The translations under genes and the position numbers were made by a program. Below, piece by piece: positions 406 to 63,524 of a DNA stretch of 64,000 bases; position 1 is the stretch's first letter; each line of letters starts with the position of its first letter. Source of the DNA: Ottowia sp. (GTDB lineage Bacteria; Pseudomonadota; Gammaproteobacteria; Burkholderiales; Burkholderiaceae_C). Below the pieces are notes generated by a model. It was not told where the DNA came from and ran no database searches. It was given only the letters and a program-made list of their open reading frames with translations. The stretch is taken from assembly GCF_035348955.1 (NCBI RefSeq), contig NZ_DAOPRM010000002.1. The stretch is one strand, 5' to 3'.

Positions 406-469
406 GCTATTTAAAATATAGCTATACGCGCTGAACTGGCAAGCGCGCAAGGCCGATTTCATTCAAAAA
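406..469 (+). repeat. Family B fixed-spacing motif copy (intergenic)
   Basis: gctatttaaaatatagc-tatac-gcgc-tgaactggcaa-gcgc-gcaaggccgatttcattcaaaa. Confidence 0.8.
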
Positions 470-540
470 CCGGCGCCGGCGCGCCGGCGGGGCGCCGGTA
501 GAATCGACGCTTTCCCCCCGATTCCAACGAAAGCCCCGAC

Positions 541-1635
541 ATGAGCCTGCAATGCGGCATCGTGGGCCTGCCCAACGTGGGCAAGTCCACGCTTTTCAAC
601 GCGCTGACCAAAGCCGGCATCGCGGCGGAGAATTACCCCTTCTGCACGATCGAGCCCAACACCGGCGTGGTCGAGGTGCCCGATCCGCGCCTGGCCGATC
701 TGGCGGCCATCGTCAAGCCAGAGCGCGTGTTGCCCGCCATCGTCGAATTCGTCGACATCGCCGGCCTGGTGGCAGGCGCGAGCCAGGGCGAGGGGCTGGG
801 CAACCAGTTTCTGGCCCACATCCGCGAAACGGACGCCATCGTCAACGTGGTGCGCTGCTTTGAGGATCCGAACGTGATCCACGTCGCGGGCAAGGTGGAT
901 CCGATTGCCGACATCGAGGTGATCCAGACCGAGTTGTGCCTGGCCGACTTGGGCACGGTCGAAAAAGCCGTGCAGCGCTACACCAAGGCCGCCAAGTCGG
1001 GCAACGACAAGGAGGCCACGGCGATGCTGAAAGTGCTCGGCCCCGTGCAGGCGGCACTGAACGAGGCCAAGCCGGTGCGCACGCTGCAGCTCTCGAAAGA
1101 AGAGCAGGCGCTGCTGAAACCCCTGTGCCTGATCACCGCCAAGCCCGCGATGTTCGTCGGCAACGTGAGCGAGGACGGGTTCGAGAACAACCCCTTCCTG
1201 GATCGCCTGAGCGAGTACGCCGCCACGCAGAACGCCCCCGTGGTCGCCATCTGCGCCAAGATGGAAGCCGACATGGCCGAGATGAGCGACGAGGACAAGG
1301 CCATCTTCCTGGAAGAAATGGGCCAGACCGAGCCCGGCCTGAACCGCCTGATCCGCGCCGCCTTCAAGCTGCTGGGCCTGCAGACCTACTTCACCGCCGG
1401 TGTGAAGGAAGTGCGCGCCTGGACCATCCACATCGGCGACACCGCACCGCAGGCGGCCGGCGTGATCCACGGCGACTTCGAGCGCGGCTTCATCCGCGCG
1501 CAGACCATCGCCTTCGACGACTACATCCAGTTCAAGGGCGAGCAGGGCGCCAAGGACGCGGGCAAGATGCGCAGCGAGGGCAAGGAATACGTCGTCAAGG
1601 ACGGCGACGTGATGAACTTCCTGTTTAACGTTTGA
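541..1635 (+). CDS. ychF: Redox-regulated ATPase YchF (Obg family)
   Basis: [35 protein letters not shown]-terminal [12 protein letters not shown]. Confidence 0.97.
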
Positions 1636-1638
1636 ACA

Positions 1639-1730
1639 CCCCCTGAGCCGCTGACGCGGCTTCCCCCTCTCCTGCGGGAGGGGGACAACGCCTGCGGCCG
1701 GCGCAGGTCCGGCCGTGGCGTTCCCGCCAT
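1639..1730 (+). repeat. Family A multi-hairpin repeat, just after ychF stop
   Basis: cccctgagccgc..gcggcttccccc..gggggacaacgcc..ggcgttcc, matches copies at 6110, 38986, 41149. Confidence 0.85.
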
Positions 1731-1776
1731 CGGTTTGCGCCCAATGGGTTGGTTCGGGTTCTCACTGCCGCTGCTG

Positions 1777-2427
1777 CTATCCGGCGCGGCGCAGCGTGAC
1801 GTTGATGCGCTGCGCGCCGGTCAGCGGGTGGTGCGCTTGCCGCAGCGGCGCGATGCCGTGAAAGCGCAATCGGTCGACGCCGCCCCACACGGCCACGTCG
1901 CCATGCAGCAGGGTCACGCGCTCGGTGCGGTCGATGCGTCGCAGGCCACCCCACAGAAACACCGCCGGCACGCCCAGCGAGACCGAGACGATAGGATGGC
2001 TGAGGTGGCGTTCGTCGCGGTCCTGGTGCAGGCCCATGCGGGCGCCGGGGGCGTAGCGGTTGATGAGGCACGCGTCGGGCGTGAAATCGGCGAACCCCGC
2101 CGCTTCAGCGGCGCCGCGCGCCAGTTCGAGCCAGGGCACGGGCAGCGCCGGCCAGGGGCGCCCGCTGTCGGGATCAAGCGGCGCATAGCGGTAGCCACGC
2201 CGGTCGCTGACCCAGCCCAGCGCGCCGCAGTTGGTCAATGCCACCGACATGCGCTGGCCGCCGGGCGTGACCATGTGGCGCAGCGGCGCCTTTGCAATGA
2301 CGGCTTGTAGCCCGGGCCACAGCGCATCCACGTGCGCTAGCGCGAACCCGCGCAGCACACGGGCGTGGGCGCCCAATGGCAGGGTGGTGCCGCATAACGC
2401 GCGGTCAGCGAACAGGTCACCCGTCAT
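1777..2427 (-). CDS. alkB: DNA oxidative demethylase AlkB
   Basis: MVTPGG..MSVA, GWVSDRRGYRY, PDACLINRY, HQDRDE, RFHG, RINVTLRRA. Confidence 0.95.
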   Translation of the reverse strand: MTGDLFADRALCGTTLPLGAHARVLRGFALAHVDALWPGLQAVIAKAPLRHMVTPGGQRMSVALTNCGALGWVSDRRGYRYAPLDPDSGRPWPALPVPWLELARGAAEAAGFADFTPDACLINRYAPGARMGLHQDRDERHLSHPIVSVSLGVPAVFLWGGLRRIDRTERVTLLHGDVAVWGGVDRLRFHGIAPLRQAHHPLTGAQRINVTLRRAG

Positions 2428-2623
2428 GCAAGCTTGAGGAGTTCATGGGCAGCGGCTCCCACGGCGTATGGTTGTAAATCAGTCGGGACAGCGCCGCGAA
2501 ATCGATGCAATGTGCATCACCAGCTGAGAGGGTGATCTTCGAGCAAAAACAGCTGCTGGCAGATGCCCGCCAGGCGCTGCATCGCCGACCAAGGCTTGCC
2601 GCGAGAGCGCTTTGGCTTGGCGG

Positions 2624-3442
2624 TCAGCGTGCGCGCACAGCGGTCGGTGCGATGCTTTGACGACTCTGAAGCGGTGCCAGCAGCAGCTGATCCAGCCGCT
2701 GGTCGCGTGCGCTGCGCGAATGGGCCAGCCCCAGTTCCATCTGCCGCTGTTGCTCGACCGGTTCCACCGCCGTCGCCGTGCCCAGCAGGCGGTCGAACCA
2801 GGGCAGCACGATGCCGTAATTGCTGTCGGTCCAGCGCTGTGCGCTGCGGTGGTGGTTGCGATGAAAGTCAGGCGTGACCAGCAGCCAGCCCAGCGCGCGC
2901 GTGAGCCTGGGGCCGAACGACAGGTTGGCGTGGGCCAACGTCGTGACCACCAGGGCGAACAAGGAATACGCCAGCACCGCCAGCGGTGGTGCACCCAGTG
3001 GCAGCAGCACGGCCAGCGAGATCAGCGCCGTCACCCCGTTTTCCAGCGGGTGGTGGCGGTGCGTGGTGGTCGCGTCCATCTCCGGGTCGGTGTGGTGCAC
3101 GGCGTGCAGGCGCCACAGCCAGGGCACGACGTGGCTGATGCGGTGCACGGCGTAACCCAGGGCGTCGAGCACGAGGAAGGTGACCGGCCAGGCCAGCCAG
3201 GCCGGCATCTCAAGCCAGTGCAGCAGTCCAAACGGAGCGCCGCGCTGCACCGACAGCAGGCCAGCCAGCGCCCAGAACAGCAGCGGCGTCAGCAGCGTGA
3301 CGGCCGTGGCCAGGGCCGCAAGCAGCAGGTTGTTGAGCCAGCGCCACGGCGCGCCGGGCGCGAGGGGGCGCAGCGGCTTTGCCGATTCAAGCGCCAGCAC
3401 GGCGACCAAGCTGGCGATCAGGACAAGCAGGTACAGCTGCAT
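2624..3442 (-). CDS. Sterol desaturase / fatty acid hydroxylase family membrane protein
   Basis: His boxes HRISH, LHAVHH, RHHPLE, HRNHH and NYG..WFDRLLGT; start at ATG 3442 (MQLYLL) assumed. Confidence 0.85.
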   Translation of the reverse strand: MQLYLLVLIASLVAVLALESAKPLRPLAPGAPWRWLNNLLLAALATAVTLLTPLLFWALAGLLSVQRGAPFGLLHWLEMPAWLAWPVTFLVLDALGYAVHRISHVVPWLWRLHAVHHTDPEMDATTTHRHHPLENGVTALISLAVLLPLGAPPLAVLAYSLFALVVTTLAHANLSFGPRLTRALGWLLVTPDFHRNHHRSAQRWTDSNYGIVLPWFDRLLGTATAVEPVEQQRQMELGLAHSRSARDQRLDQLLLAPLQSRQSIAPTAVRAR

Positions 3443-3512
3443 CAAAGGGTTGTATCGACCGCCAGCATCCGTCAGCGGCCTTGATGTCCGAGCCAACGAG
3501 ACATTGAGGAGA

Positions 3513-6108: not shown

Positions 6109-6109
6109 A

Positions 6110-6226: not shown

Positions 6227-6238
6227 GGTGAGGGGGAT

Positions 6239-6301
6239 GCTTTGGTTTTGATAGCTGCCGGCGCTTGTCGGGTGGGCGCTGGGGGCTTTTTCTATTTCTA
6301 A
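6239..6301 (+). repeat. Family B motif copy
   Basis: gctttggttttgatagc-tgccg-gcgc-ttgtcgggtgg-gcgc-tgggggcttttt. Confidence 0.8.
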
Positions 6302-6316
6302 CTTTGGGTTGTTTTC

Positions 6317-7948
6317 ATGAATGCACTGATTTCCGTTTCGGACAAGACGGGCGTGGCCGAGTTTGCGGCGGCGCTGGTGGGGCTGGGCTTCAACCTGCTG
6401 TCGACCGGCGGCACGGCCAAGCTGCTGCAGGAGGCGGGGCTGCCCGTGACCGAGGTGGCCGAGGTGACGCGCTTTCCGGAGATGCTGGATGGCCGCGTGA
6501 AGACGCTGCACCCGGCCGTGCACGGCGGCCTGCTGGCGCGGCGCGACCTGCCGGCGCACATGCAGGCGCTGGCCGACCACGGCATCGGCAGCATCGACCT
6601 GGTGGTGATCAACCTGTATCCGTTCGAGTCCACGGTGGCACGCAAAGGCTGCACGCTGGCCGACGCGATCGAGAACATCGACATCGGCGGGCCGGCCATG
6701 GTGCGCAGCGCGGCCAAGAACTGGCAACACGTGGCCGTGCTGACCGACGCCAGCCAATACGCGCCGGTGCTGGCCGAATTGCAGGCCCATGAGGGCAAGC
6801 TGTCCGACAAGACGCGCTTCGGGCTGGCGGTGGCGGCGTTCAACCGCATCAGCAACTACGACGCGGCCATCAGCGATTACCTTTCTGCTATTGATTTCGA
6901 AGCTGCAGGCGCAGATGGCGTGCCGGCCAGGGGCCTGTTTTCTGCACAAAGCAATGGCCGATTCGTCAAGCTGCAGGACTTGCGCTACGGCGAAAACGCC
7001 CACCAGCAGGCGGCGCTGTACCGCGACCTGTACCCGGCGCCGGGCTCCATCGTCACGGCCGAGCAGTTGCAGGGCAAGGAGCTGAGCTACAACAACATCG
7101 CCGACGCCGACGCGGCGTGGGAATGCGTCAAGCAGTTCGACACGGGACCGAACGCGACCCTGGGCGCGGCCGCGGCCTGCGTGATCGTCAAGCACGCCAA
7201 CCCGTGCGGCGTGGCGGTGGGTGCGGATGCACTGCAGGCCTACCAGAAGGCCTTCAAGACCGACCCGACCAGCGCCTTTGGCGGCATCATCGCCTTCAAC
7301 GTGCCGGTCGATGGTGCGGCGGCCGAAGCGGTGTCCAAGCAGTTCGTCGAGGTGCTGATGGCGCCCGACTTCACGCCCGAGGCGCTGGCCGTGTTGCAGG
7401 CCAAGGCCAACGTGCGCGTGCTGCGCATTCCGCTGGACGGCGTGCAGCGCGACGGAGCCACCGACTGGGCGCGTGGCCAGAACGCCATCGACGTCAAGCG
7501 CGTGGGCTCGGGCCTGTTGATGCAGACCGCCGACAACCACGAGCTGAAGCTGTCGGACCTGAAAGTGGTGACGAAGAAGGCGCCGACCGATCAACAGCTG
7601 CAGGACCTGCTGTTCGCCTGGAACGTGGCCAAGTTCGTCAAGAGCAATGCCATCGTCTTCTGCAAGGACGGCATGACGATGGGCGTGGGCGCGGGGCAGA
7701 TGAGCCGCCTGGATTCGGCGCGCATCGCCAGCATCAAGGCCGGCCACGCCGGCTTGTCGCTGCAGGGCACGGCGGTGGCGAGCGATGCGTTCTTCCCGTT
7801 CCGCGACGGGCTGGACGTGGTCATCGACCACGGCGCCACCTGCGTGATCCAGCCCGGCGGCTCGATGCGCGACCAGGAAGTGATCGACGCGGCCGACGAG
7901 CGGGGTGTGGCGATGGTGTTCTCAGGCGTGCGGCACTTCAGGCACTGA
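6317..7948 (+). CDS. purH: Bifunctional AICAR formyltransferase / IMP cyclohydrolase
   Basis: [47 protein letters not shown]. Confidence 0.97.
6887..6950 (+). repeat. Family B motif embedded in purH coding sequence
   Basis: gctattgatttcgaagc-tgcag-gcgc-agatggcgtgc-cggc-caggggcctgtttt; local run of AT-ending codons. Confidence 0.65.
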
Positions 7949-23218: not shown

Positions 23219-23228
23219 GGCGCGGTTG

Positions 23229-23499
23229 AACAGCCATGAACAGCCGGACGCAGAGCAAGCGCAGGTTGCGCACAGGACGCAGAGGCGTCTTTTGGCGTTG
23301 CCACCGCCCAGCCTCCCGCTCCGTCATTCCCGCGGAGGCGGGAATCCACTCATCGTCGTGCCGGGCGCGGTGGTCGACCGAGACATGGATTCCCCCTTTC
23401 GCGGGAACGACGAAGCCGCAGAGCGCGTCAGTTCAGAGCTGGATCAGCCAACATCTTCTGCGACCTTTGCGACCCCTTCGCGCCCTTTGCGTTCAAGAA
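23229..23499. repeat. Family C inverted element (acagccggacgca... / ...tgcgttc) enclosing a dRS3-like inverted pair
   Basis: Left arm resembles 26884-26930; right arm 23455-23499 is an imperfect reverse complement. Confidence 0.6.
23322..23412. repeat. Inverted pair of ATTCCC-N8-GGGAA(T) palindromes (dRS3-like)
   Basis: cgtcattcccgcggaggcgggaatcca ... tggattccccctttcgcgggaacgacg. Confidence 0.75.
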
Positions 23500-23501
23500 T
23501 T

Positions 23502-23562
23502 GCTCCCAAAACCAGAGCTGCCAGCCCTTGCGGGGCAAGCGCCAAAGCCTGATTTGATTGAT
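23502..23562 (+). repeat. Family B motif copy
   Basis: gctcccaaaaccagagc-tgcca-gccc-ttgcggggcaa-gcgc-caaagcctgatttgattga. Confidence 0.75.
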
Positions 23563-23567
23563 TCACC

Positions 23568-25618: not shown

Positions 25619-25642
25619 GGCGGGCACAATTGCCCGCCCTAC
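25615..25642. repeat. Perfect GTAG-flanked palindrome between convergent genes (REP-like or terminator)
   Basis: GTAGGGCGGGCA-caat-TGCCCGCCCTAC, 12-bp perfect stem. Confidence 0.6.
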
Positions 25643-25645
25643 ATT

Positions 25646-25709
25646 GCTCATGTTTTGATAGTGGCTGACGCGCGATCCATGAGCGACGCCAGCGAAATGG
25701 GCTTGAAAC
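25646..25709 (+). repeat. Family B motif copy (degenerate)
   Basis: gctcatgttttgatagt-ggctg-acgc-gcgatccatga-gcga..gggcttgaaa. Confidence 0.6.
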
Positions 25710-25748
25710 CCCGGCAGGCCTCGTGCAGGCAGCCCTGCGTCTTCGCCG

Positions 25749-26991: not shown

Positions 26992-27002
26992 CCTGACGGT
27001 TT

Positions 27003-27064
27003 TTTTGAATAAAAACCTTGCCAGCGCTTGCTTATAAAGCGCGGATAGCTATCATTTTCATAAC
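27003..27064 (-). repeat. Family B motif copy
   Basis: rc: gttatgaaaatgatagc-tatcc-gcgc-tttataagcaa-gcgc-tggcaaggtttttattcaaaa. Confidence 0.8.
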
Positions 27065-27083
27065 AACATCCATTCCATCCACC

Positions 27084-35348: not shown

Positions 35349-35357
35349 TCGATGCAG

Positions 35358-35421
35358 TATGGGCGTCCAATATGCCCCTTGCGCTTGTCTGACTTGGGTT
35401 TGTTGCTATTAATAAGTTAGC
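35358..35421 (-). repeat. Family B motif copy
   Basis: rc: gctaacttattaatagc-aacaa-accc-aagtcagacaa-gcgc-aaggggcatattggacg. Confidence 0.65.
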
Positions 35422-35451
35422 GATCGCCGATCGCTGCTACCGGAGACCGCC

Positions 35452-41247: not shown

Positions 41248-41264
41248 TTTTGAGAGCCTTGGAT

Positions 41265-42998
41265 ATGAACCTCACCAAACGCGAATTTCTGCAAGTCCTG
41301 AGTGCCGCCAGCGCAGCAGGCATGGGCCTTGGCAGCTATCAAAATGCAAGCGCACAGACGGCGGCCGAGGGGCTGTACGACATCCCCAAATTCGGCAACG
41401 TGTCGTTCCTGCACATCACCGACTGCCACGCGCAGCTCAAGCCCATCTACTTCCGCGAGCCCAGCGTCAATCTGGGCGTGGCCGACATGAAGGGCAAGCT
41501 GCCGCACCTGGTGGGCGAGCACCTGCTGAAGGTGGCCGGCGTCAAGCCCGGCACGGCCCAGGCGCACGCGCTGACCTACCTCGACTTCGAGCAGGCGGCG
41601 CAGCGCTACGGCAAGGTGGGCGGCTTTGCGCACCTGGCCACGCTGGTCAAGCGCCTGCGCGCCAGCCGCCCCGGCGCGCTGCTGCTGGACGGCGGCGACA
41701 CCTGGCAGGGCAGCGGCACGGCGCTGTGGACCAAGGGCCAGGACATGGTCGATGCCTGCAAGCTGCTCGGCGTCGATGTGATGACCGGCCACTGGGAATT
41801 CACCCTGGGCATGGACCGCGTGAAGGAAATCGTCGAGAAAGACTTTGCCGGCAAGGTCGACTTCGTCGCCCAGAACGTCAAGACACTCGACTTTGGCGAC
41901 CCGGTGTTCAAGCCCTACGTCATCAAGCCCATGAACGGCGTGCCGGTGGCCATCATCGGCCAGGCGTTTCCGTACACGCCCATCGCCAACCCGCGCTACA
42001 TGGTCAAGGACTGGGAATTCGGCATCCAGGACGAGAACATGCAGAAGATGGTCGACGAGGCCCGCGCCAAGGGCGCGCAGGTGGTGGTCGTCATCAGCCA
42101 CAACGGCATGGACGTCGATCTGAAGATGGCCAGCCGCGTGCGCGGCATCGACGCCATCATGGGCGGCCACACGCACGACGGCATGCCCGTGGCCAGCGTC
42201 ATCAAGAACGCCGGCGGCCAGACGCTGGTGACCAATGCCGGCAGCAACGGCAAATTCATCGGCGTGCTGGACTTTGACGTGAAGAACGGCAAGGTGGCCG
42301 ACTACCGCTACAAGCTGCTGCCCGTGTTTGCCAACATGCTGCCGGCCGACAAGGACATGGACGCGCTCATCACCAAAATCCGCGCCCCGTATGAAAGCAA
42401 ACTTGCCGAACAGCTGGGCGTGACCGAAGGCCTGCTGTACCGCCGCGGCAATTTCAACGGCACGGGCGACCAGCTCATCGTCGATGCCCTGATGGAAGCG
42501 CAGGGCGCGCAGATCGCCTTCTCGCCCGGCTTCCGCTGGGGCACCACGCTGCTGCCCGGCCAGCCCATCACGCGCGAATGGCTGCTGGACATGACCGCCA
42601 CCACCTACAGCTACGCCACGCTGACCGAGATGAAGGGCGAGATGCTCAAGACCATCCTCGAAGACGTGGCCGACAACCTGTTCAACCCCGACCCGTACTA
42701 CCAGCAAGGCGGCGACATGGTGCGCGTCGGCGGCCTGACCTACGCCTGCGACCCCCTGGCCAGCCAGGGCAAGCGCATCAGCGACATGCGCCTGAAGGGC
42801 CAGCCCATCGACGCCAGCAAGAACTACCTCGTCGCCGGCTGGGCGCCCGTCGCCGAAGACGCGTCGAAAGCCGGCAACAAGATGGTGTGGGACGTGATCG
42901 AGGACTGGCTCAAGTCCAAGGCCGGCAAGGTGACACCGCGCCAGGTCAACCAGCCCAAGCTGACCGGCGGGCTGCCGAATCCGGGGTATGCGGGCTGA
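41265..42998 (+). CDS. soxB: Thiosulfohydrolase SoxB
   Basis: KREFLQ Tat-like, HITDCHAQL, FREPSVNLG, DGGDTWQG, GGHTHD, QQGGDM. Confidence 0.97.
   Translation: MNLTKREFLQVLSAASAAGMGLGSYQNASAQTAAEGLYDIPKFGNVSFLHITDCHAQLKPIYFREPSVNLGVADMKGKLPHLVGEHLLKVAGVKPGTAQAHALTYLDFEQAAQRYGKVGGFAHLATLVKRLRASRPGALLLDGGDTWQGSGTALWTKGQDMVDACKLLGVDVMTGHWEFTLGMDRVKEIVEKDFAGKVDFVAQNVKTLDFGDPVFKPYVIKPMNGVPVAIIGQAFPYTPIANPRYMVKDWEFGIQDENMQKMVDEARAKGAQVVVVISHNGMDVDLKMASRVRGIDAIMGGHTHDGMPVASVIKNAGGQTLVTNAGSNGKFIGVLDFDVKNGKVADYRYKLLPVFANMLPADKDMDALITKIRAPYESKLAEQLGVTEGLLYRRGNFNGTGDQLIVDALMEAQGAQIAFSPGFRWGTTLLPGQPITREWLLDMTATTYSYATLTEMKGEMLKTILEDVADNLFNPDPYYQQGGDMVRVGGLTYACDPLASQGKRISDMRLKGQPIDASKNYLVAGWAPVAEDASKAGNKMVWDVIEDWLKSKAGKVTPRQVNQPKLTGGLPNPGYAG
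41286..41351 (-). repeat. Family B motif embedded in the soxB signal-peptide coding sequence
   Basis: rc: gcttgcattttgatagc-tgcca-aggc-ccatgcctgct-gcgc-tggcggcactcaggacttgcag. Confidence 0.7.
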
Positions 42999-43581: not shown

Positions 43582-43659
43582 CTGGCTTCCAGCCGCTCTT
43601 GCTTTGCGGCGTCGTCCGAAAGTGGACACCCGCCTGGCTCGGGCGTCCAGCGTTGGGCT

Positions 43660-43722
43660 GCTTCTCTTTAGATAGCGCTTGGCGCTTGTTCTGAAAGCGC
43701 TTGCGGCTGATTAGACTGTCAA
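43660..43722 (+). repeat. Family B motif copy
   Basis: gcttctctttagatagc-gcttg-gcgc-ttgttctgaaa-gcgc-ttgcggctgattagac. Confidence 0.8.
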
Positions 43723-43738
43723 GGAACGGTTTTGCGAC

Positions 43739-45139
43739 TCAATCCCGCGTCACCCGCAGCACTTCCTCGCGGCTCGTGATGCCGCGCTCGATCAGCCGCT
43801 CGCCGTCGTCGCGCATCAGCGTCATGCCCTTGGCCAGTGCGGCGGCGCGGATGTCGGCTTCGCCGGCTTGGGCGTGGATGCGGGCGCGGATGTCGTCGTC
43901 GACCGTGAGCAACTCGAACACGCCGGTGCGGCCCTGGTAGCCGGTGTGGCCGCAGGCGTCGCAGCCGGCGCCGTGGCAGGCGGCGCAGTATTTGCGCACC
44001 AGCCGCTGCGCCAGCACGCCCAGCAGCGAGCTGGACAGCAGGAAGGGTTCGACGCCCATGTCGATCAGGCGGGTGACGGCGCTGGCGGCGTCGTTGGTGT
44101 GCAACGTGGCCAGCACCAGGTGGCCGGTCAGGCTGGCCTGGATGGCGATCTGCGCGGTTTCGATGTCGCGGATTTCGCCGATCATGACGATGTCCGGGTC
44201 TTGCCGCAGGATGGCGCGCAGGGCGCGGGCAAAGGTCAGCTCGATGCGCGGGTTGACCTGCGTCTGGCCAACGCCGGGCAGGTCGTACTCGATCGGGTCT
44301 TCCACCGTCATGATGTTGTTGCGGTGGGCGTCCAGCCGCGCCAGGCTGGCGTACAGCGTGGTGGTCTTGCCGCTGCCGGTGGGGCCGGTGACCAGGATGA
44401 TGCCGTGCGGCTGGCCGATCAGATGCTCGAATTTTTGTAGCACGCTGCCCTGCATGCCGACGGCTTCCAGGCTCAGTTTGCTTTCAGACTTGTCGAGCAG
44501 GCGCAGCACCGCGCGTTCGCCGTGCGCGCTGGGTAGGGTGGACACGCGCACGTCGATGGCTCTTGTCCCTAAGCGCAGGCTGATGCGGCCGTCCTGCGGC
44601 AGGCGCTTTTCGGCGATGTCGAGGTCCGCCATGATCTTCAGGCGGCTGATGAGCGCGGCGTGCAGCGCGCGATTGGGCTGCACCACCTCGCGCAGCGCGC
44701 CGTCGACGCGAAAGCGCACGCTGCTGTGGCGCTCGTACGCTTCGATGTGAATGTCGCTGGCGCCGTCGCGCGCGGCCTGCGTCAGCAGCGCGTTCAGCAT
44801 GCGGATGATGGGCGCGTCGTCGGCGCTTTCCAGCAGGTCTTCAACCGCGGGCAGCTCCTGCATGATGCGCGACAGGTCGGCGTCGCTCTCGACTTCGCTC
44901 ACCACGGCAGCGGCGCTGCTTTCGCTTTGTGAATAGGCGGTGCTGATGCGCTGCGCCAGACGGTGCGGCTCGTCCTGCTGCAGGGCCAACGGCAGTGCGC
45001 CGTTGCCGTGGCGGCGCATCACCTCGCTCAGGTGCCCGGCGTCGGGACGGCCGTCATGCCAGAGCGTCAGCGCCTGGCCGTCGTCTTCGAGCAGCAGCCG
45101 CGCGGTGCGCGCGAAGGCGTAGGGCAGCGGGTAGCGCAT
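43739..45139 (-). CDS. gspE: T2SS ATPase GspE
   Basis: [42 protein letters not shown]. Confidence 0.95.
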
Positions 45140-45154: not shown

Positions 45155-47569
45155 CTAGGGCGTTCGGAAGGTGGTGCCGCCGTAGTAGTTGCCTTCGCCG
45201 GCGGCCGGCCCGCTGCTCATGCCGTGCTGGCCGCGCAGGGGCGGCGGTGGCGCGGGGCGCGTCCACGCCTCGGGGTTGGCGGGCACCAGCGGCGGCATGA
45301 CGGGCGCCTCGTTGACGGGCATGGCGGCGCTGGGCTGCGGCTGGTTGGCCTGCTGCGCGGCGCGCATGTAGTCGTAGCGGTCGAGCGAGAAGGCCTCGGT
45401 GGCCGCGGCGTCGCGCACGATGACCGGGCGCAGGAAGACCATCAGATTGGTCTTGATCAGCTTGCGGTTGCGGTTCTTGAACAGGTTGCCCAGCACGGGC
45501 ACGTCGCCCAGCAGCGGCACCTTGTCTTCGCCTTCGCTGAACTGGTCTTCCATCAGGCCGCCCAGCACGACGACGGCGCCGTCGTCCACCAGCACGCTGG
45601 ATTCGATGGCGCGCTTGTTGGTGGTGGGGCCCGACAGGCTGGCCGCGGTGGCGGGGTCGACGCTGGAGGTCTCCTGGTAGATCACCATCTTGACCGTGCC
45701 GTTTTCGTTGATCTGCGGGCGCACGCGCAGGGTCAGCCCGACGTCCTTGCGCTCGTAGGTCTGAAACGGGTTGACGGTGCCGCCGCTGGCGCCGGTGTTG
45801 GTGAAGCTGCCGGTGGGCATGGGCACGTTCTGGCCCACCATGATCTTGGCTTCTTCATTGTCCAGCGTCAGCAGCGTGGGGGTGGACAGCACGTTGCCCG
45901 CGCCACTGGTCTGGATGAAGTTGGCCAGCAGCATCAGGTTGCGCGTGCCCAGCGCAAAGTTGAAGCCGGTGTTGGGCTTGGCCGCCAGCAGGCTGCTGAC
46001 GGTGTTGTTGTTGACGTAGTTGGTCACTGCGCCGGCCACGTCGAAGATGTTGGTGTTGGGCGTCATCGGCGAGGTGGCACGCCCCGACGAATAGTTGGTG
46101 CCCAGCACGCCGATGGTGTTGCGGCCGTTGCCCAGCAGCTGCTGCCACTGCACGCCCAGGTCGGCCGCCTTGCTCATGCTGACCTCGGCGATCAGGCTTT
46201 CGACGTAGACCTGCGCGCGGCGCTGGTCCAGCCGGTCGATGACGGCGCGCAATTCGCGGTACACCGGCTCGGCCGCGCTGATGATGAGCGAGTTGGTCGC
46301 CGGGTCGGCCTGAATCTGGCCGCCGGTGGCCGGCTGGTTGTTGGCGGCGGCGTTGATGCTCGGCCCGGTGGCCAGGCCGCCCGCGGTGCCGCCCATCTGC
46401 GCGCCGGCCAGCATCTGGTTGATGCCTGCCGGGCTGCTGGGGATGGCGCTGCCCGTGCCCCCCACCGCGCCGGCGGACGGCGTCTGCCCCGGCAGCGCCG
46501 CCAGCGCGGCGCGCAGCGTGACGGCCAGCTTGGCGGCGTCGGCGTTCTTCAGGTAGACGACGTGGATGTTGCCGGTGCTGCCGTCGGCGCGCACCTGCGG
46601 CGGCTGGTCGAGCTGCTGGATCAGCGTCTTGGCCAGCGCCAGCCGCGCCGGGTTGGCGGCGCGCACGATGATGGCGTTGCTGCGCGGCTCGGGCACCAGC
46701 GTGGTGCGGTAGCCACTGTCGCCGCCGCCCAGGGCCGCCGCGACGGGCATGGCGGGCTGCCCCGGCGCCGCGGTCGCGGGCGCGCCGCCGGCGCCCGAAT
46801 CGATGAGCCGCGCCACCAGCGGCGCCAGGTCAGACGCCACCGCGTGGCGCAGGCGAACCACTTCGACCCCGGTGGCGTTGGACACGTCCAGCGCCGCGAT
46901 GATGCGGGCCAGGCGCTGCAGGTTGTCGCCGTAGTCGGTGATGACCAGCGCGTTGGTGCCGGGGTTGACGTTGATGGTGTTGTTGGGGCTGATCAGCGGG
47001 CGCAGCACCGGCACCAGGTTGTTGGCGTTCTCGTGCGTCAGGCGGAATATCTGCGTCTGCACCTGCCCGCCGCCGCGCACCGCGCCGGCCGATACGCTGG
47101 ACGCCTGCAGCTTGGCGTCGGATTCGGGCAGGACCAGCACCATGCCGCTGGATTCAAGCAGCGCGAAGCCCTGCGTGCGCAATTGCGCGCCAAACAGCCG
47201 CAGCGCCTGAGCCGGCGACACCGGCGTGGTGCTGGTCAGCGTCATGGTGCCCTTGACGCGCGGGTCCACCACCACGTTGCGCCCGGTGATGGTGGCCATG
47301 GTGCGCGCCACGGCGTCGATCTCGGCGTTGGCAAAGTCCAGCGTGACGTTGCCGCCGCCGCTGGCCGCGCTCTGCGCCATGGCTGGTGCCAGCGGCAGCG
47401 CCGTGGCCAGCGCCAGCAGCACGGCCAGCGCCGTGCGCGCGGCGCGCGGCGGGGGAGTGATGCAAAAGGCGCGTGGCATGGGCGGACGTGACCAGAAAGC
47501 TATGGGTAATGTAGCAAATGGCCGCCGGGGGGCGGGCGCCGGGGCGGTATCTTGATGCAAAAAAGCCAT
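45155..47569 (-). CDS. gspD: T2SS secretin GspD
   Basis: VVDPRVKG, LRPLISP, QVYVESLIAEV, LDNEEA, KVPLLGDVP; start 47569 or 47479. Confidence 0.95.
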   Translation of the reverse strand: MAFLHQDTAPAPAPRRPFATLPIAFWSRPPMPRAFCITPPPRAARTALAVLLALATALPLAPAMAQSAASGGGNVTLDFANAEIDAVARTMATITGRNVVVDPRVKGTMTLTSTTPVSPAQALRLFGAQLRTQGFALLESSGMVLVLPESDAKLQASSVSAGAVRGGGQVQTQIFRLTHENANNLVPVLRPLISPNNTINVNPGTNALVITDYGDNLQRLARIIAALDVSNATGVEVVRLRHAVASDLAPLVARLIDSGAGGAPATAAPGQPAMPVAAALGGGDSGYRTTLVPEPRSNAIIVRAANPARLALAKTLIQQLDQPPQVRADGSTGNIHVVYLKNADAAKLAVTLRAALAALPGQTPSAGAVGGTGSAIPSSPAGINQMLAGAQMGGTAGGLATGPSINAAANNQPATGGQIQADPATNSLIISAAEPVYRELRAVIDRLDQRRAQVYVESLIAEVSMSKAADLGVQWQQLLGNGRNTIGVLGTNYSSGRATSPMTPNTNIFDVAGAVTNYVNNNTVSSLLAAKPNTGFNFALGTRNLMLLANFIQTSGAGNVLSTPTLLTLDNEEAKIMVGQNVPMPTGSFTNTGASGGTVNPFQTYERKDVGLTLRVRPQINENGTVKMVIYQETSSVDPATAASLSGPTTNKRAIESSVLVDDGAVVVLGGLMEDQFSEGEDKVPLLGDVPVLGNLFKNRNRKLIKTNLMVFLRPVIVRDAAATEAFSLDRYDYMRAAQQANQPQPSAAMPVNEAPVMPPLVPANPEAWTRPAPPPPLRGQHGMSSGPAAGEGNYYGGTTFRTP
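47499..47562 (+). repeat. Family B motif copy at the gspD 5' end
   Basis: gctatgggtaatgtagc-aaatg-gccg-ccggggggcgg-gcgc-cggggcggtatcttgatgcaaaa. Confidence 0.65.
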
Positions 47570-49140: not shown

Positions 49141-50354
49141 GGCGCGGCCACCTGTCGCAGCACGGTGCTGTCGCCTTCGGCGGACAGGGCGTAGCCTTGC
49201 GGGCGCAGGCGCTGGTTGGCGTCGGTCAGCGCGGCGGCGGCCACCGTGACGCCTTTCAGCCGCAGCTCGCCTGCTGCAAATTCGATAGCTGTCGGCGCAG
49301 TACTGACGGGCGCTGACTGCGCAAAAGCCTGCAGCATCGGCTCCAGGTCGCGCGGCGAGGCGGCGCCGGTGGCCTGGCGCAGCTGGGCGACCTCGCGCGC
49401 CATCTGCGCCGGCGCGTCCACCACCACCTTGACGGCGGGGAAAGTCTGGGTCAGCAGCGCCTGGTTGGCGGCGCGGCGCGCGGCCAGATCGTCCTGCGTG
49501 CGCCAGGCCAGCACGTTCAGGCCGATCAGGTTGGCCAGCACCAGCAGCGCCAGCCCCCAGCGGGCTGGCCGCCACAGCGGGGCGTGCAGAAAGTCGCGCC
49601 ACAGCGCACCGGCGCGCTTGGCGGCGCGCGCGCGCCCGGTGCGGGCAAACTGGAACTGCGCCAAATCCCACCCGCTGCGGCTGGCGCGCAGCAGGCGCTG
49701 CGCGGGCGATTCGATGGCGACCGGTTGCTGCAGCGTCTGTTCGGCCAGCGCCGCCACGGCCGGTTCGGCGCGCAGCTCGGGCAGCGGCGCGTCGTCGGGG
49801 CGGGGCGGCAGCAGCGCCAGCGTGCCGACGTCGAGCGGCAGCGCCTGCGCGCCGCCCGGCACCTCGGCGCCGCTCATCAGCAGCAGGGCGCGCTCCGGCG
49901 TGCCGGTCACCAGCCATTGCAGCGGCCCGTCCTGCGGCGGCAGCTCGGGCACGATGCGGCTGACCGGGCGGCCGGCGGCTTCCAGCGCGGCCATGTGGTC
50001 GGCCAGCCAGGCGCGGTCGCATACGGCCACCCAGGCGCTGGCGCCGGCCTGTGCGCCGGGCGCCAGGGCGAAGTGAAGGCCTTCGACGTCGTCCAGCACC
50101 TGCTCTTCCAGCAGGCCGTCGAGCACGGTGCGCAGGCGCGGCGAGGCGGGGCCAACGCCGCGGGGCAGCGTCACCCGCTGCCACGACAGCTGGCTGGCCG
50201 GCGCCACGGCCACCACTTCGACACCGCGCCCGGCCGGCGGCAGCAGCGCCGGCGCCGCGCTGCCATGCGCCGCCACGCCCTGGCCGTCGTCCGAGGTGGC
50301 AAAGTCATAGCCGGCCGGCGCACCCGGCGGCAGGGCGATCAGAAGGAGGCTCAT
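49137..50354 (-). CDS. gspL: T2SS protein GspL
   Basis: LSWQRV.LP, LEEQVLDD..LHFAL, WDLAQF, TM, TFP.V.VVVDAP.QM. Confidence 0.9.
   Translation of the reverse strand: MSLLLIALPPGAPAGYDFATSDDGQGVAAHGSAAPALLPPAGRGVEVVAVAPASQLSWQRVTLPRGVGPASPRLRTVLDGLLEEQVLDDVEGLHFALAPGAQAGASAWVAVCDRAWLADHMAALEAAGRPVSRIVPELPPQDGPLQWLVTGTPERALLLMSGAEVPGGAQALPLDVGTLALLPPRPDDAPLPELRAEPAVAALAEQTLQQPVAIESPAQRLLRASRSGWDLAQFQFARTGRARAAKRAGALWRDFLHAPLWRPARWGLALLVLANLIGLNVLAWRTQDDLAARRAANQALLTQTFPAVKVVVDAPAQMAREVAQLRQATGAASPRDLEPMLQAFAQSAPVSTAPTAIEFAAGELRLKGVTVAAAALTDANQRLRPQGYALSAEGDSTVLRQVAAP
49273..49335 (+). repeat. Family B motif embedded in gspL coding sequence (antisense)
   Basis: gctgcaaattcgatagc-tgtcg-gcgc-agtactgacgg-gcgc-tgactgcgcaaaagcc. 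Confidence 0.7.
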
Positions 50355-57301: not shown

Positions 57302-57323
57302 GGGAGATGCTCCGATTCGCTAT

Positions 57324-58013
57324 TTATTTGGTAGCTGGCTGCGCTTGTTGAACGCCGGGAAAGGCGGCATTCAATGCCAAATTGAGCCGAAGCACGTTGA
57401 CGCGCGGCTCGCCCAGCAAGCCAAGCACGCGGCCTTCCGTATGCTGACTCAAAAATTGTTGCACCTGCTCCAAGGGGATGCCGCGCGCCTTGGCCACGCG
57501 CCCCACCTGGGCTTGCGCGTTGGCGACCGAGATGTGCGGATCGAGCCCGGAGGCTGAGGCGGTGACGGCGTCCACCGGCACTGGCGCGGTAGAGCCGAGC
57601 CCGTTGGTTTTGCGGTAATCCGCCACGCGCTGCGTCACGGCGTCAATCAGCGCCTGGTTGGTCGGCCCCTGGTTGCTGCCAGCGGACAACGCGGCGTTGT
57701 AGGGCGCGGCGACGGTCTTGCTGGCGTCCTGCGGATCGGGCGCGCTGGTGGCGCTGGGGCGCGGGTGGAAGTGGCGCGCGTCGCTGAAATGCTGGCCGAT
57801 TAGGTCGGAGCCGATCAACGCGCTGCCGCGCTCGATCAGGCTGCCGCCCGCTTGGCGCGGCATCAGCATCTGCGCCACGCCGGTGGTCAGCAGCGGATAA
57901 ACCAGGCCGGTGAGCAGCGCCACGAAGACGGCGCCGCGCAGGCAGGGGCCGATCAGGCCACGCAGCGGTGATGCGGCAGCCACGGTGTCGGGGGTGATTT
58001 CAAGTGTGTTCAT
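57324..58013 (-). CDS. kdpC: KdpC
   Basis: GLVYP, GS.LIGQ.F, FHPRPSA, VTASASGLDPHIS, VNVLRLN. Confidence 0.95.
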   Translation of the reverse strand: MNTLEITPDTVAAASPLRGLIGPCLRGAVFVALLTGLVYPLLTTGVAQMLMPRQAGGSLIERGSALIGSDLIGQHFSDARHFHPRPSATSAPDPQDASKTVAAPYNAALSAGSNQGPTNQALIDAVTQRVADYRKTNGLGSTAPVPVDAVTASASGLDPHISVANAQAQVGRVAKARGIPLEQVQQFLSQHTEGRVLGLLGEPRVNVLRLNLALNAAFPGVQQAQPATK

Positions 58014-61210: not shown

Positions 61211-61956
61211 CACGAGCCCCCCACGAAGTCGGGCCGCACCCAGTCGATCACCAGCGGCCCGGCCAGCGGCTGGCCGGGCGCCAGGGTGAGGAACAGGCGC
61301 ACGCCGTCCGGCAGCACGCGCGTGTCGGCGCCCGACGGCGCGCCGCTGGACAGCGGGTGGGTCCAGGCGTTCTGGCGGAAGTAGTGCAGTTGCCAGTCCA
61401 GCGCGGCGGCCACGGTGACCGCCTGCGCGCCGCCCGGCAGTGCGCCGGTGGCGGCGTCGCCGCCCTGGCCCCACGCCGCGGCCGCGTCCCAGGCGCTGGC
61501 CCACGCCGCCTGCGACAGCACCGGCGCCGACTGCCAGCGCTGCCACTGCCCGCCGGTGCTGCGGCGCGTCCACGCCACCACGCGCAGCCCCGCCGCCGCA
61601 TCGCCCGCGGCGGTGCGGGTGATGCGCAGCGTGTGCCCGTCCCACGCCAGGCTGCGCTGCAGCGCGGGCGGCGGCTGTGCGGTCGGCGAATCGGCGGCAG
61701 CGGCCGGCCACGTCATCATCGCGTCCAGATCGGTGCGCCACTGCGCCAGCCCCGCCTGCGTCGCCAACACCTCGTCCGTGTACCGCCGCGTCGCGTCCTG
61801 CGCCCGCAACATCCCGTCGATCCCGCGCCAGCTCAGCACCGCGATCACCGCCATGATCGTCAGCGCGACCAGCACTTCGATCAAGGTAAAGCCGCGCGAT
61901 TTTTTCAAGCTAAATACGGCCTCAGCGCTTTCCAAATCGGCGCACTCAGCTATCAA
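61210..61956 (-). CDS. gspJ: Minor pseudopilin GspJ; start uncertain (TTG 61956 or TTG 62286)
   Basis: SRG|FTLIEVLVAL, SWRGIDGM, QWRTDLD, LPDGVRL. Confidence 0.85.
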   Translation of the reverse strand: MIAECADLESAEAVFSLKKSRGFTLIEVLVALTIMAVIAVLSWRGIDGMLRAQDATRRYTDEVLATQAGLAQWRTDLDAMMTWPAAAADSPTAQPPPALQRSLAWDGHTLRITRTAAGDAAAGLRVVAWTRRSTGGQWQRWQSAPVLSQAAWASAWDAAAAWGQGGDAATGALPGGAQAVTVAAALDWQLHYFRQNAWTHPLSSGAPSGADTRVLPDGVRLFLTLAPGQPLAGPLVIDWVRPDFVGGS

Positions 61957-61965
61957 AACCGTAGT
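61901..61965 (-). repeat. Family B motif forming the gspJ leader
   Basis: rc actacggttttgatagc-tgagt-gcgc-cgatttggaaa-gcgc-tgaggccgtatttagcttgaaa. Confidence 0.8.
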
Positions 61966-61988
61966 TTCGCCACCCGCCACCCCCCATC

Positions 61989-62280
61989 GCGGCCGCGCAG
62001 CAGGCCGCCCCAAACGGCCGCGGAGCAGGCCACGCGCGAACGCCGTCGCCGGACCTGCGCCGGCGACTGGCGTTGTCCCCCTGGGGGGATGGCGCCGAAG
62101 GCGATCTGGAACCTGCTCGAAGCCCCGGCGCGAGGCGGATGGGATGCGGCTTGGGATGGGATGCCAGGCGCGATTCGCCGCCAATGGCTCGTGCCATTGG
62201 CAAGAATCGCAACGCCGCAGCCCGCCCAAGTCCGCGCCCAGCCGTCCGCGGCGGGGCTTCGAGCAGGTTCCCAGGGGGGG
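61989..62280 (-). repeat. Family A repeat (interrupted by a MITE) after gspI stop
   Basis: Near-identical to the 62900-63041 and 63563-63689 copies. Confidence 0.8.
62108..62271. mobile_element. 164-bp MITE-like element with 20-bp perfect terminal inverted repeats
   Basis: GGAACCTGCTCGAAGCCCCG ... CGGGGCTTCGAGCAGGTTCC; splits a family A copy at ccccctg|ag. Confidence 0.75.
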
Positions 62281-62282
62281 CC

Positions 62283-62687
62283 TCAATTCCTCCCCACAAT
62301 CGTAGAAAGCTGCAACACCGGCACGCCCCCCTCGCTGACCGCCGCCTCGACGCGCCGGAAGTTGGGGTTGGGCGTGGGCCGCACGATCTGCGCCACCTGA
62401 AACTGCCGCCCCGCCTGCGGGCATTCGACCACGCTGTCGCCCACGCCCGGCAACTGGCGCGCCAGCCGCAACTCGGTCAGCCGGTTCTCGGCGCAAATCT
62501 GCGCCAGCAGCACCGTGGCCTGCCGCCCCGCGTTGTCCGTCAGCGCCGACGTGGCCTTCAACCCCGCCGTCAGCGCAATCGCCGTGATGGCCAGCGCCAC
62601 CAGCACCTCGACCAGCGTGAAGCCGCGTGCTCGATGAGCGCCTGATGCCCCGTCAGCCCGCAATGGACAAGCGCGGAACGCTATCAA
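62283..62687 (-). CDS. gspI: Minor pseudopilin GspI; start uncertain (TTG 62687 up to ATG 63032)
   Basis: ARG|FTLVEVLVALAI, AQICAENRL, PTPNPNFRRV. Confidence 0.88.
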   Translation of the reverse strand: MIAFRACPLRADGASGAHRARGFTLVEVLVALAITAIALTAGLKATSALTDNAGRQATVLLAQICAENRLTELRLARQLPGVGDSVVECPQAGRQFQVAQIVRPTPNPNFRRVEAAVSEGGVPVLQLSTIVGRN

Positions 62688-62696
62688 AACAGGATT
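62634..62696 (-). repeat. Family B motif forming the gspI leader
   Basis: rc aatcctgttttgatagc-gttcc-gcgc-ttgtccattgc-gggc-tgacggggcatcagg. Confidence 0.75.
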
Positions 62697-62740
62697 GCAG
62701 TCGATGCCACGCCATGACCGACGCTCGCTTGGGCGGTGGG

Positions 62741-62845
62741 CTCCTGCCCCCGCTGGGGGAAGGCTGGGATAGGGGCTGACCATCTTCGAGAAATCCCCCG
62801 TGGCGGGCCCCCACCCCAACCCTCCCCCAACGGGGGAGGGAGGAA
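62741..62845. repeat. Inverted pair of CCCCC..GGGGG hairpin repeats (family E)
   Basis: ctcctgcccccgctgggggaaggctgggataggggc ... gcccccaccccaaccctcccccaacgggggagggagg. Confidence 0.65.
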
Positions 62846-62899
62846 GAAACGTCGGATGGTTTTTGCAGACAGCCATGACCGAACCCTTCGCGCCCACCG

Positions 62900-63041
62900 G
62901 CGGCCGCGCAGCAGGCCGCCCCCAAAGGCCGCGGAGCAGGCCACGCCAGAACGCCGTCGCCGGACCTGCGCCGGCGCCTAGCGTTGTCCCCCTGGGGGGA
63001 TGGCGCCGCAGGCGACTCAGGGGGGATGTCATCTCAGGGGG
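62900..63041 (-). repeat. Family A repeat after gspH stop, with a ~16-bp tandem duplication of its 5' end
   Basis: rc atgacatccccctgag-atgacatcccccctgagtcgcctgcggcgcc... Confidence 0.8.
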
Positions 63042-63044
63042 ATG

Positions 63045-63515
63045 TCATCTGACTTCAAAAGGCCGCAGCCCATCGCTCACGACCTCCAGCGTGGCCGCGC
63101 CGTCGCCCGCCGCGCCCAGCAGCACCACCGCCTGCGCGTCGATGATGGGGTCAGGCCCCAGCCGCAGCGCGGCGTTGCCCACGGTGCGCGTGCGGGTGTC
63201 CAGCCAGTGCGTGGGCAGCGGCGGGCCGCCGGGCGGCAGGCCGTCCCACGCAAAGCCGGTGGCGGTGGCGCGCCAGGTGATCGGCACGCCGGCCGCCCGC
63301 GACTGCGCCCGCGCCGATTCCAGCAGCGCCGCCAGCCGGTCGGCCTCGCGCGCCAGGGCGCTCGCCCCGCTGTCGCGCAGCGCCAGGCTGGCCACGGCCG
63401 TGCCGATGGCGATGACGGCAATCACCACCATCAACTCCAGCAGGGTGAAACCGCGCCGGTTCTTCAAGCAAAAATGGCCTGGAGCGCTGGAGGGATAAGC
63501 GCGAGCAGCTATCAA
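63045..63515 (-). CDS. gspH: Minor pseudopilin GspH; start uncertain (TTG 63515 or TTG/GTG ~63539)
   Basis: RRG|FTLLELMVVIAVI, READRLAALLESARA.SR, LGPDPII, SDGLRPF. Confidence 0.88.
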   Translation of the reverse strand: MIAARAYPSSAPGHFCLKNRRGFTLLELMVVIAVIAIGTAVASLALRDSGASALAREADRLAALLESARAQSRAAGVPITWRATATGFAWDGLPPGGPPLPTHWLDTRTRTVGNAALRLGPDPIIDAQAVVLLGAAGDGAATLEVVSDGLRPFEVR

Positions 63516-63524
63516 AAAAGCAGT
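63461..63524 (-). repeat. Family B motif forming the gspH leader
   Basis: rc actgcttttttgatagc-tgctc-gcgc-ttatccctcca-gcgc-tccaggccatttttgcttgaag. Confidence 0.8.

Follow-up and report, generated by a model that had tools for sequence, protein, structure and literature searches.

A rigid ~67-nucleotide DNA motif at about a thousand sites in an Ottowia genome is probably a recognition signal kept in place

We have examined a dispersed DNA motif, here called Family B, in a 64,000-nucleotide stretch of the Ottowia sp. draft genome (contig NZ_DAOPRM010000002.1 of assembly GCF_035348955.1; hereafter the window), in the remainder of that draft, and in its relatives. We conclude that Family B is probably a cis-acting recognition signal, kept in place at about a thousand sites by a sequence-specific process. 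An initial annotation of the window, made from its letters alone, had listed 14 gapless copies of a ~63-bp motif of fixed geometry, and had preferred a protein-recognition or recombination site over a transposon as the explanation; the observation is confirmed and extended here.

Family B is one fixed-register profile

Family B was modeled as a gapless position weight matrix (PWM) of 72 columns, seeded on TTGATAGC and then iterated, and was tested in the whole Ottowia sp. draft (G000; 3.23 Mb, 68% GC). The PWM recovers all 14 of the copies noted earlier, whose coordinates are right and which do align without gaps, at scores of 19.7 to 64 bits; three are weak (47494, 41285, and 62630, at 19.7, 24.9, and 25.2 bits, respectively), and two further window sites are gained, at 57314-57385 (37.4 bits) and, doubtfully, at 44420-44491 (14.1 bits). 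Across the genome, TTTTGATAGC occurs 86 times where 0.7 occurrences are expected; raw PWM matches number 1476 at 20 bits or more and 1761 at 12 bits or more, against 0 and 9 in block-shuffled sequence; and the non-overlapping copies come to 928 (at least 20 bits) or 1022 (at least 12 bits), an excess over shuffled sequence that upholds the motif as real. The pattern ATAGCT-N4-GCGC-N11-GCGC has 277 matches and its reversed control has none, whereas the bare GC anchors AGC-N5-GCGC-N11-GCGC are unspecific (57 window sites at no more than one mismatch); the specificity of Family B comes from its AT-rich parts and its register, not from the bare GC anchors. Mean spacing is ~3.3 kb genome-wide and 4 kb within the window, so that the recurrence seen initially stands, at a density slightly higher than the one copy every ~4-5 kb then estimated.

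A column profile of 226 seed instances reveals a unit of ~67 nt with sharp borders, ~33 informative columns across the conserved span, and no terminal inverted repeat; the consensus is ttGCTAY-N7-ATAGCTgcc-n-GCGCTTg-N7-cAAGCGCtgg-n-GGCC-n-ATTTg-N6-aAAa, and the mean GC content is 0.505 compared with 0.676 for the genome. The unit has three parts: i) a left dyad, GCTAY-N7-ATAGC, with T-N11-A geometry, whose 7-base spacer is a T-tract in 365 copies and an A-tract in 310, the two being mirror forms of one module; ii) a central imperfect palindrome around two GCGC boxes 11 nt apart, the consensus containing an imperfect palindrome of 35-40 nt with ATAG before it; and iii) an AT-rich ATTT...AAA tail. 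The A/T columns show no clear 10.5-nt peak that would indicate helical phasing. The likeness to a LysR box pointed out initially does hold for the left dyad, but this geometry is generic and identifies no regulator. The claim of fixed geometry fares better: with three blocks detected independently, block B shows no offset from block A in 721 of 735 cases (98%), and block C none from block B in 963 of 1075 (90%).

Each copy is an independent draw from this one position-specific profile, and Family B is not currently spreading by copy-and-paste. The 928 copies in G000 are on average 0.49 identical to one another and match the consensus at a median of 0.60; no pair is 85% identical or more, and nearest neighbors (median identity 0.68) are hardly more alike than they are among column-shuffled copies (0.65). 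Mutual information between pairs of columns peaks at 0.054 bit, which leaves room for neither subfamilies nor compensatory pairing; there is likewise no covariation in support of an RNA stem over the 928 copies, and Rfam returned no match in a gathering-score scan of the window and none at E≤5 for the best copy. The only sign of recent duplication that we saw is in a congener (G020:C1:1018253-1018601), where three copies 96-99% identical follow one another at 165-bp intervals and a fourth copy, diverged from these, lies 168 bp upstream; this array is tandem, not dispersed, and its region is syntenic with window genes that had been labeled pseudopilins.

Copies lie between and within genes

As had been noted for the window, Family B occurs in both orientations and in both intergenic and coding DNA, and the PWM map and gene calls bear this out genome-wide. 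By our own codon-based gene calls (3023 genes, 88% coding), the 928 copies divide into 504 between genes, 125 across a gene end, and 299 (32%) wholly inside genes, several of these last verified in Pfam-supported genes. Copies between genes are found mostly at 3′ ends, occupying 155 of 390 convergent gaps (40%), 423 of 2054 tandem gaps (21%), and 37 of 401 divergent gaps (9%); after co-oriented genes, 193 copies have the same orientation and 230 the opposite one. Copies within genes are distributed evenly along them, with a biased reading frame. Spacing is more even than random (coefficient of variation 0.86 compared with 1.04 ± 0.04); gaps shorter than 300 bp make up 1% where 14.5% is expected, and doublets are nearly absent (4 close pairs among 878 copies).

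The longest copy-free stretch (G000:C12:31210-57317; 26 kb, GC 0.642, poor codon score) carries genes of the glycosyltransferase, methyltransferase, Wzt-type ABC (polysaccharide), secretin, and PilN-like kinds; this region for surface polysaccharide and pilus functions has probably been exchanged horizontally. A scan of viral contigs was uninformative: 51 contigs matched, usually once and frequently at their ends. Anecdotally, LigD carries two copies in its linkers between domains and a UvrD/PD-(D/E)XK helicase-nuclease carries three (G000:C22:13583-16609 and G000:C26:15205-18546), which may recall the reported bias of uptake sequences toward genome-maintenance genes.

Coding copies mostly overwrite existing codons

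Comparison with motif-free congeners shows that coding copies mostly overwrite existing codons by base substitution, leaving protein length unchanged. Five coding copies compared in this way (one in purH, one in the linker of an ABC transporter, and three in the helicase-nuclease) show no consistent gain in length, and in four of the five the lengths are exactly equal. At the purH site, where most carriers spell the motif with AT-ending codons and the protein is equally long in all congeners, carriers score 10.9 to 34.3 bits in 11 of 13 cases (the others being G013 at -4.0 and G021 at -20.8), and genomes with 0-1 pattern matches score -24 to -1.7 in 6 of 8 (G006 and G002 reach 9.2 and 18.1). 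This split is less clean than those at the ABC-linker and helicase sites. The ABC-linker copy, again without any change in length, scores 33 to 67 in 7 of 8 carriers (G003, -23) and -25 to +5 in non-carriers. Two of the helicase-nuclease copies lie in conserved protein segments of unchanged length: copy 1 scores 18 to 49 in 11 of 12 carriers (G013, -18) and -21 to -8 in non-carriers, and copy 2 scores 30 to 56 in 11 of 12 carriers (G012, -23) and -24 to +4 in non-carriers. Not every coding copy behaves in this way, since those in a YgiQ-like and a FemAB-like protein add ~19 and 8 amino acid residues, respectively.

Relatives: conservation, loss, and dialect

Counts in other genomes refer to exact patterns, which dialects can evade. 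Of 24 congeners, 15 contain the exact sub-pattern, with up to 113 matches, and 16 other families of the order have no match. A survey of 300 genomes of the GTDB family finds at least 10 matches in 34 genomes, representing 20 of 166 genera, where controls give at most 2; congeners in this survey may differ by 0 versus 179 matches (genus g104), or by 187 versus 4 (genus g105). The named carriers are Acidovorax (including the A. temperans and A. facilis genomes), Giesbergeria, Simplicispira, Ottowia, Comamonas, Diaphorobacter, Polaromonas, Rhodoferax, and Hylemonella. In syntenic stretches of 72-76 kb, there are 22 copies in G020, 16 in G017, and 25 in G008, and none in G016 or G001; lineages without Family B lack copies everywhere. 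Non-carriers fall into several separate groups on a poorly resolved single-gene tree of purH, and this suggests that Family B may have been lost repeatedly among congeners.

Single copies are older than the genera, as copies at the same site in other genera demonstrate. Of 13 motif-rich genomes from other genera, 10 have the copy upstream of purH, with position and orientation unchanged. For the helicase-nuclease, 11 of 12 genomes from other genera score 31-63 bits at copy 2, and 8 of 12 score at least 31 bits at copy 1. The coding copy in purH was not present in the other genera examined and is confined to this genus. DNA-level constraint on AT-ending codons has been in force for as long as such single copies have existed. 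Orthologous copies are 0.77 identical in anchor columns and 0.37 in spacer columns, compared with 0.64 and 0.31 for unrelated copies, and four-fold sites of the flanking genes are 0.69-0.77 identical compared with 0.46 for random pairs; the spacers have therefore been nearly randomized while the anchors have been held.

Carriers also differ in dialect. The N5 block after ATAGC is TGCCA in 36 of 100 G017 copies but in 1 of 100 G020 copies, and TGCTC in 5 of 100 and 40 of 100, respectively (Fisher P = 2e-16); G010 favors TGCCC. Orthologous copies bear the dialect of their own genome. Since copying from a whole donor would equalize the spacers, and the spacers differ, the homogenizing force acts position by position.

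The gap following pyrB is instructive in another way. Seven carriers (G008, G020, G012, G003, G007, and G004 among them) have a copy there; the gap is 0-33 bp in G006, G011, G014, G002, G019, and G016 and ~58 bp in G010, and these seven genomes without a pyrB copy are six with 0-1 pattern matches and one low-count carrier, G010. Insertion, or deletion after loss, must therefore also occur. We initially read the gap as an insertion and have dropped that reading, deletion after loss being equally possible; the change is unpolarized because the outgroups are other families and the motif is ancient in the clade.

The A/T-tract, but not the whole element, is strand-polarized

The initial annotation had raised the possibility of a strand bias between origin and terminus. 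Orientation of the whole element shows no clustering or arm bias in G000, G017, G316, or G196, but the A/T-tract within it is polarized, most clearly in G017 and more weakly in G000 and G020. In G017, a one-contig genome whose arm boundaries were chosen after seeing the data, T-tracts lie on the plus strand at 0-0.83 and 2.6-3.6 Mb and on the minus strand at 0.95-2.4 Mb; 79 copies conform to this rule and 21 do not. A-tracts follow the opposite strand (66 conforming, 22 not), giving 145 conforming and 43 nonconforming tracts combined (p 4e-14). One tract switch agrees with the strand switch of GGGCAGGGC at 2.54 Mb, which as a separate observation is very sharp and dense, as expected near dif. 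The other tract switch, near dnaA (0.973 Mb), disagrees with the second GGGCAGGGC switch at ~0.45 Mb, leaving a conflict over 0.46-0.86 Mb; for the 0.45-0.97 Mb interval, the explanation would be either an origin distant from dnaA or the relocation of a 0.4-Mb segment.

In the G000 draft, GGGNAGGG is strongly strand-polarized within each contig (for example, 19:1 in C6, 18:3 in C5, and 1:11 in C13) and is therefore usable as a marker of replication direction; it replaced local GC skew, which tracked gene strand and was dropped as a proxy. A-tracts are found on the GGGNAGGG-rich strand in 141 cases and on the other in 97 (p 0.005), with a similar ratio in gaps and in genes. We rejected transcription as the source of the polarity (T-tracts in tandem gaps lie on the sense strand in 166 cases, against 147), and background skew as well, the leading-strand TTTT/AAAA ratio leaning the opposite way. 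The polarity of the tract may reflect a second, replication-linked constraint.

Candidate trans-acting genes and literature

A search for a gene whose presence follows that of the motif had been proposed, with a recombinase or HUH target among the candidates, but neither of the two genes profiled, PF01797 and comEC, co-varies with Family B. A gene for a PF01797 protein resembling REP-associated tyrosine transposases (RAYT; REP, repetitive extragenic palindromic) is found in the non-carriers G001, G002, G009, G016, G018, G019, and G023, and was not found in the carriers G010 and G024, both 99% complete; PF01797 thus occurs in genomes with and without the motif, and the notion of a HUH/RAYT target gains no support. 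comEC is present in G000 and nearly everywhere else, in carriers and non-carriers alike. As a side observation, the Y1_Tnp (RAYT-like) gene of G000 (G000:C93:8003-8737) is single-copy, encodes ~245 amino acid residues, and is kept by most of the genus whether or not Family B is present; G020 has ~20 IS200-like PF01797 matches in place of a single RAYT-like gene. A Family B copy lies at the 3′ end of the G000 gene, which is unremarkable given the density of the motif.

A literature search with the exact motif sequence found no relevant paper. The initial judgment that no function has been described for Family B stands, but the motif is not wholly unreported: two unexplained motif pairs, ATAGCT(N)22CAAAAG in Polaromonas naphthalenivorans and GCTTAT(N)5AAGCG in Acidovorax ebreus (Tong et al. 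2017, PMC5217627), are fragments of the kind seen here. The register of the second block of Family B, GCTT-N7-AAGCG, fits the A. ebreus pair; the P. naphthalenivorans pair has ATAGCT in common with Family B. The A. ebreus pair occurs at 44 convergent, 4 divergent, and 59 co-oriented sites (PMC5217627); the published pairs and Family B lean alike toward convergent and co-oriented gaps. Whereas the published pairs are pentamer pairs in single genomes, Family B is the full unit; what is new here is that unit together with its overprinting of coding sequence, conservation, dialects, and polarity, the literature holding fragments only. Another published repeat, the Beta-proteobacterial repeat element (BRE) of Hot et al. 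2011, was considered and rejected as an identity for Family B, being ~90 bp long and 69% GC where Family B is 50% GC.

What keeps Family B in place?

A sequence-specific, trans-acting process probably maintains Family B, favoring profile-matching bases at every site. The process that we tentatively rank first, although short of probable, is biased DNA uptake followed by recombination, or molecular drive, as proposed for the uptake sequences of the Neisseriaceae and Pasteurellaceae; the motif would then mark self-DNA for a receptor linked to the type IV pilus. The analogy with the DNA uptake sequences (DUS) of the Neisseriaceae and the uptake signal sequences (USS) of the Pasteurellaceae extends to copy number (about a thousand per genome, in both orientations, as variants of one profile), accumulation in place (including within genes, in preferred frames), enrichment at the 3′ ends of genes, lineage dialects, depletion in probable foreign DNA, and transformable relatives that prefer self-DNA. 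In a 2025 preprint, about half of known uptake sequences lie in terminators, coding uptake sequences are frame-biased, and dialects exist (10.1101/2025.10.24.684340). Natural transformation is documented in Acidovorax temperans, A. facilis, and Verminephrobacter eiseniae; for A. temperans, no DNA but that of the same species gave transformants, and uptake by V. eiseniae is selective, although no uptake sequence is named for these bacteria (Davidson et al. 2014, PMC4212676). With somewhat greater reserve, we suggest that Family B could be a self-recognition uptake signal of transformable Comamonadaceae, which would make it the third independent family of such signals and the longest by far, with a replication-set A/T-tract as a second layer.

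Several observations weigh against uptake. DUS are 10-12 nt long, and USS have a 9-nt core plus flanks; at ~67 nt and ~33 informative columns, Family B is several times longer than these known uptake sequences (10-32 nt) and is not organized around a short core of ~9-12 nt. Its density is one copy per 3.3 kb rather than ~1 per kb; its internal A/T-tract has a replichore-linked polarity that uptake does not predict and that DUS and USS lack; and it is missing from many congeners that keep comEC, which shows no co-variation, and no receptor candidate was found. In addition, non-carriers have gaps of 0-60 bp where carriers hold a copy, and some coding copies, those in the YgiQ-like and FemAB-like proteins, do add length.

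Two of the rival explanations deserve serious attention, though we regard each of them as unlikely. Family B could be the binding site of an abundant architectural or replication-linked protein (nucleoid-associated, gyrase-type, or multimeric and LysR-like) that is kept by selection, the protein contacting the ATAGC dyad and the two GCGC boxes over ~65 bp. Such a protein would account for the long footprint and rigid register, the T-N11-A geometry of the left dyad, spacing that is more even than random with almost never more than one copy per gap, and the arm polarity of the A/T-tract in G017, with the same tendency in G000 and with one switch shared with GGGCAGGGC at 2.5 Mb and the other near dnaA at 0.97 Mb. 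Polar chromosomal motifs such as the FtsK orienting polar sequences (KOPS) and Chi also change strand between the arms, and the copy number and spacing of Family B are of the same order as those of Chi in E. coli. The whole of the element is unpolarized, however, making a strongly asymmetric reader unlikely; tract polarity and GGGCAGGGC conflict in G017 over 0.46-0.86 Mb; the A/T columns are not clearly phased, and no protein emerged as a candidate; and healthy congeners are completely without Family B, which must therefore be dispensable.

Somewhat less likely still, in our estimation, is an old palindromic element, selfish or domesticated, that was spread by a transposase in an ancestor and is now immobile and decaying, some in-frame copies being tolerated. 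The models would be REP elements, including bacterial interspersed mosaic elements (BIME) and, with their RAYTs, the REP doublets forming hairpins (REPINs); miniature inverted-repeat transposable elements (MITEs); and, for the tolerated copies, the Rickettsia palindromic elements (RPE), which are read in frame inside functional genes, often in linkers, and add residues. Like REP elements, Family B has a short palindromic consensus, hundreds of copies downstream of genes, and vertical persistence at the family level; its palindrome is imperfect and follows ATAG, the conserved 5′ tetranucleotide of REP hairpins being GTAG; filled and empty gaps among congeners, the length-adding copies, the G020 array of three near-identical copies, a tail-to-tail pair in the same genome, and the single RAYT-like gene of G000 with a copy at its 3′ end would all fit such an origin, as would avoidance of divergent gaps, which is seen in A. 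ebreus too (PMC5217627). Yet REP elements are strictly extragenic and come in doublets or clusters, whereas a third of Family B copies are wholly genic and nearly all are singletons; pairing in the Family B stems is not kept by compensatory change; and PF01797 is present in non-carriers and was not found in two carriers. Nor does Family B resemble a MITE, there being no terminal inverted repeat in the profile, no pair of copies at 85% identity, no subfamilies, and no added length in most of the coding copies tested, even in conserved protein segments; the five compared copies differ in this last respect from RPE, with which Family B shares its in-frame location in functional genes. Copies hold the register even though they diverge from the consensus by ~40%, orthologous copies follow the dialect of their genome, and copies persist across genera with anchors kept and spacers randomized. 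A decaying relic should lose its anchors as fast as its spacers. The same observations (no near-identical copies, independent columns, rigid register, coding copies written in place, dialects, and cross-genus conservation) support the initial preference for a recognition-type site over a transposon. As for a transcribed RNA element acting through a hairpin, such as an intrinsic terminator, an mRNA 3′-end stabilizer, or a small RNA, the location at 3′ ends and a consensus in which a T-rich tail comes after a GC-rich palindrome are what one would look for; but with no compensatory variation in the predicted stems over 928 copies, nearly equal orientations after co-oriented genes, one third of the copies in genes, and no Rfam match, we consider this highly improbable.

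Copies and neighboring repeats in the window

For 10 of the 14 stronger copies in the window, at least one carrier has a copy in the same place. The first (401..472, plus strand, 59.2 bits), between tandem genes, has a mixed spacer, TTTAAAA, and a counterpart in G008. Directly upstream of purH, the copy at 6234..6305 (plus, 57.2 bits) has the same place and orientation in G020, G008, and G017, and G016 and G001 have a shorter gap with no motif in it; the purH coding copy (6882..6953, plus, 30.7 bits) falls in an interdomain linker. The copy at 23497..23568 (plus, 50.3 bits) abuts the ATG of the gene after pyrB. At 25641..25712 (plus, 31.1 bits), between convergent genes, G008 has a plus copy, G020 the tail-to-tail pair, and G017 a minus copy only. 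The best copy of the window (26998..27069, minus, 64.0 bits) has the A-tract form and lies between divergent genes; G020 and G008 have copies there, and G017, G016, and G001 have none. Between tandem genes at 35355..35426 (minus, 47.9 bits), G020 has a copy in the same orientation and G008 one in the opposite orientation.

Further along are a doubtful weak match in the 5′ end (signal-peptide region) of the open reading frame (ORF) 41265-42998 (41285..41356, minus), where no copy was detected in G020, G008, or G001; a copy between convergent genes (43655..43726, plus, 49.6 bits); the doubtful weak match at 44420..44491 (plus), inside ORF 43739-45139, where relatives have no copy; a weak, degraded intergenic copy (47494..47565, plus) with a weak copy (27.7 bits) in the same place in G020; and a copy inside the minus-strand ORF 49137-50354 (49268..49339, plus, 38.5 bits), where three carriers have equal length and the same codons (G020 54.5, G008 36.5, and G017 16.0 bits). 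The copy at 57314..57385 (plus), absent from the earlier list, lies at a gene junction in the kdp region. Two copies of the T-tract form lie at the 5′ ends of ORFs: 61899..61970 (minus, 51.8 bits; ORF 61210-61935), with copies in G020 and G017, each in the dialect of its own genome; and 63458..63529 (minus, 55.8 bits; ORF 63045-63467), with copies in G020 and G017. Between them, a weak copy (62630..62701, minus) is just upstream of ORF 62283-62606, so that window positions 61899-63529 hold three copies at or near the 5′ ends of three short ORFs on the minus strand, which the initial annotation called pseudopilins; G020 and G017 have copies in the corresponding places.

A second, GC-rich repeat, Family A (GGGGGACAACGCC...GGCGTTC), often adjoins Family B copies. 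In the window it is found at 1679-1727, 6156-6217, 41181-41250, 48490-48590, 62011-62082, 62922-62993, and 63586-63657, and it also occurs in the pyrB gap of G012, G007, G004, and G001; by description, Family A may be the BRE (~90 bp, 69% GC; PMC3110155). The pyrB gap of the window has yet another repeat type upstream of its Family B copy, an inverted pair of ATTCCCGCGGAGGCGGGAAT (23219-23490).

Implications

Uptake-type signals of self-DNA are, to our knowledge, known from two bacterial families only, and whether molecular drive or selection maintains them is still debated. Family B presents a much longer signal with the same evolutionary signature in a large group of environmental, wastewater, and plant-associated bacteria, some members of this group being transformable with self-preference, yet with no signal identified for them. 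Because there are relatives with and without the signal, and because the carriers A. temperans and A. facilis can be cultured and transformed, the question is directly testable. If Family B does serve in uptake, species-level dialects would explain why A. temperans takes only the DNA of its own species; if instead the reader is architectural or replication-linked, the polarized A/T-tract would point to an unrecognized chromosome-organizing system. Either way, DNA-level constraint acts on ~2% of these genomes, synonymous sites in housekeeping genes among them, and this bears on analyses of codon usage, selection, and annotation throughout the family.

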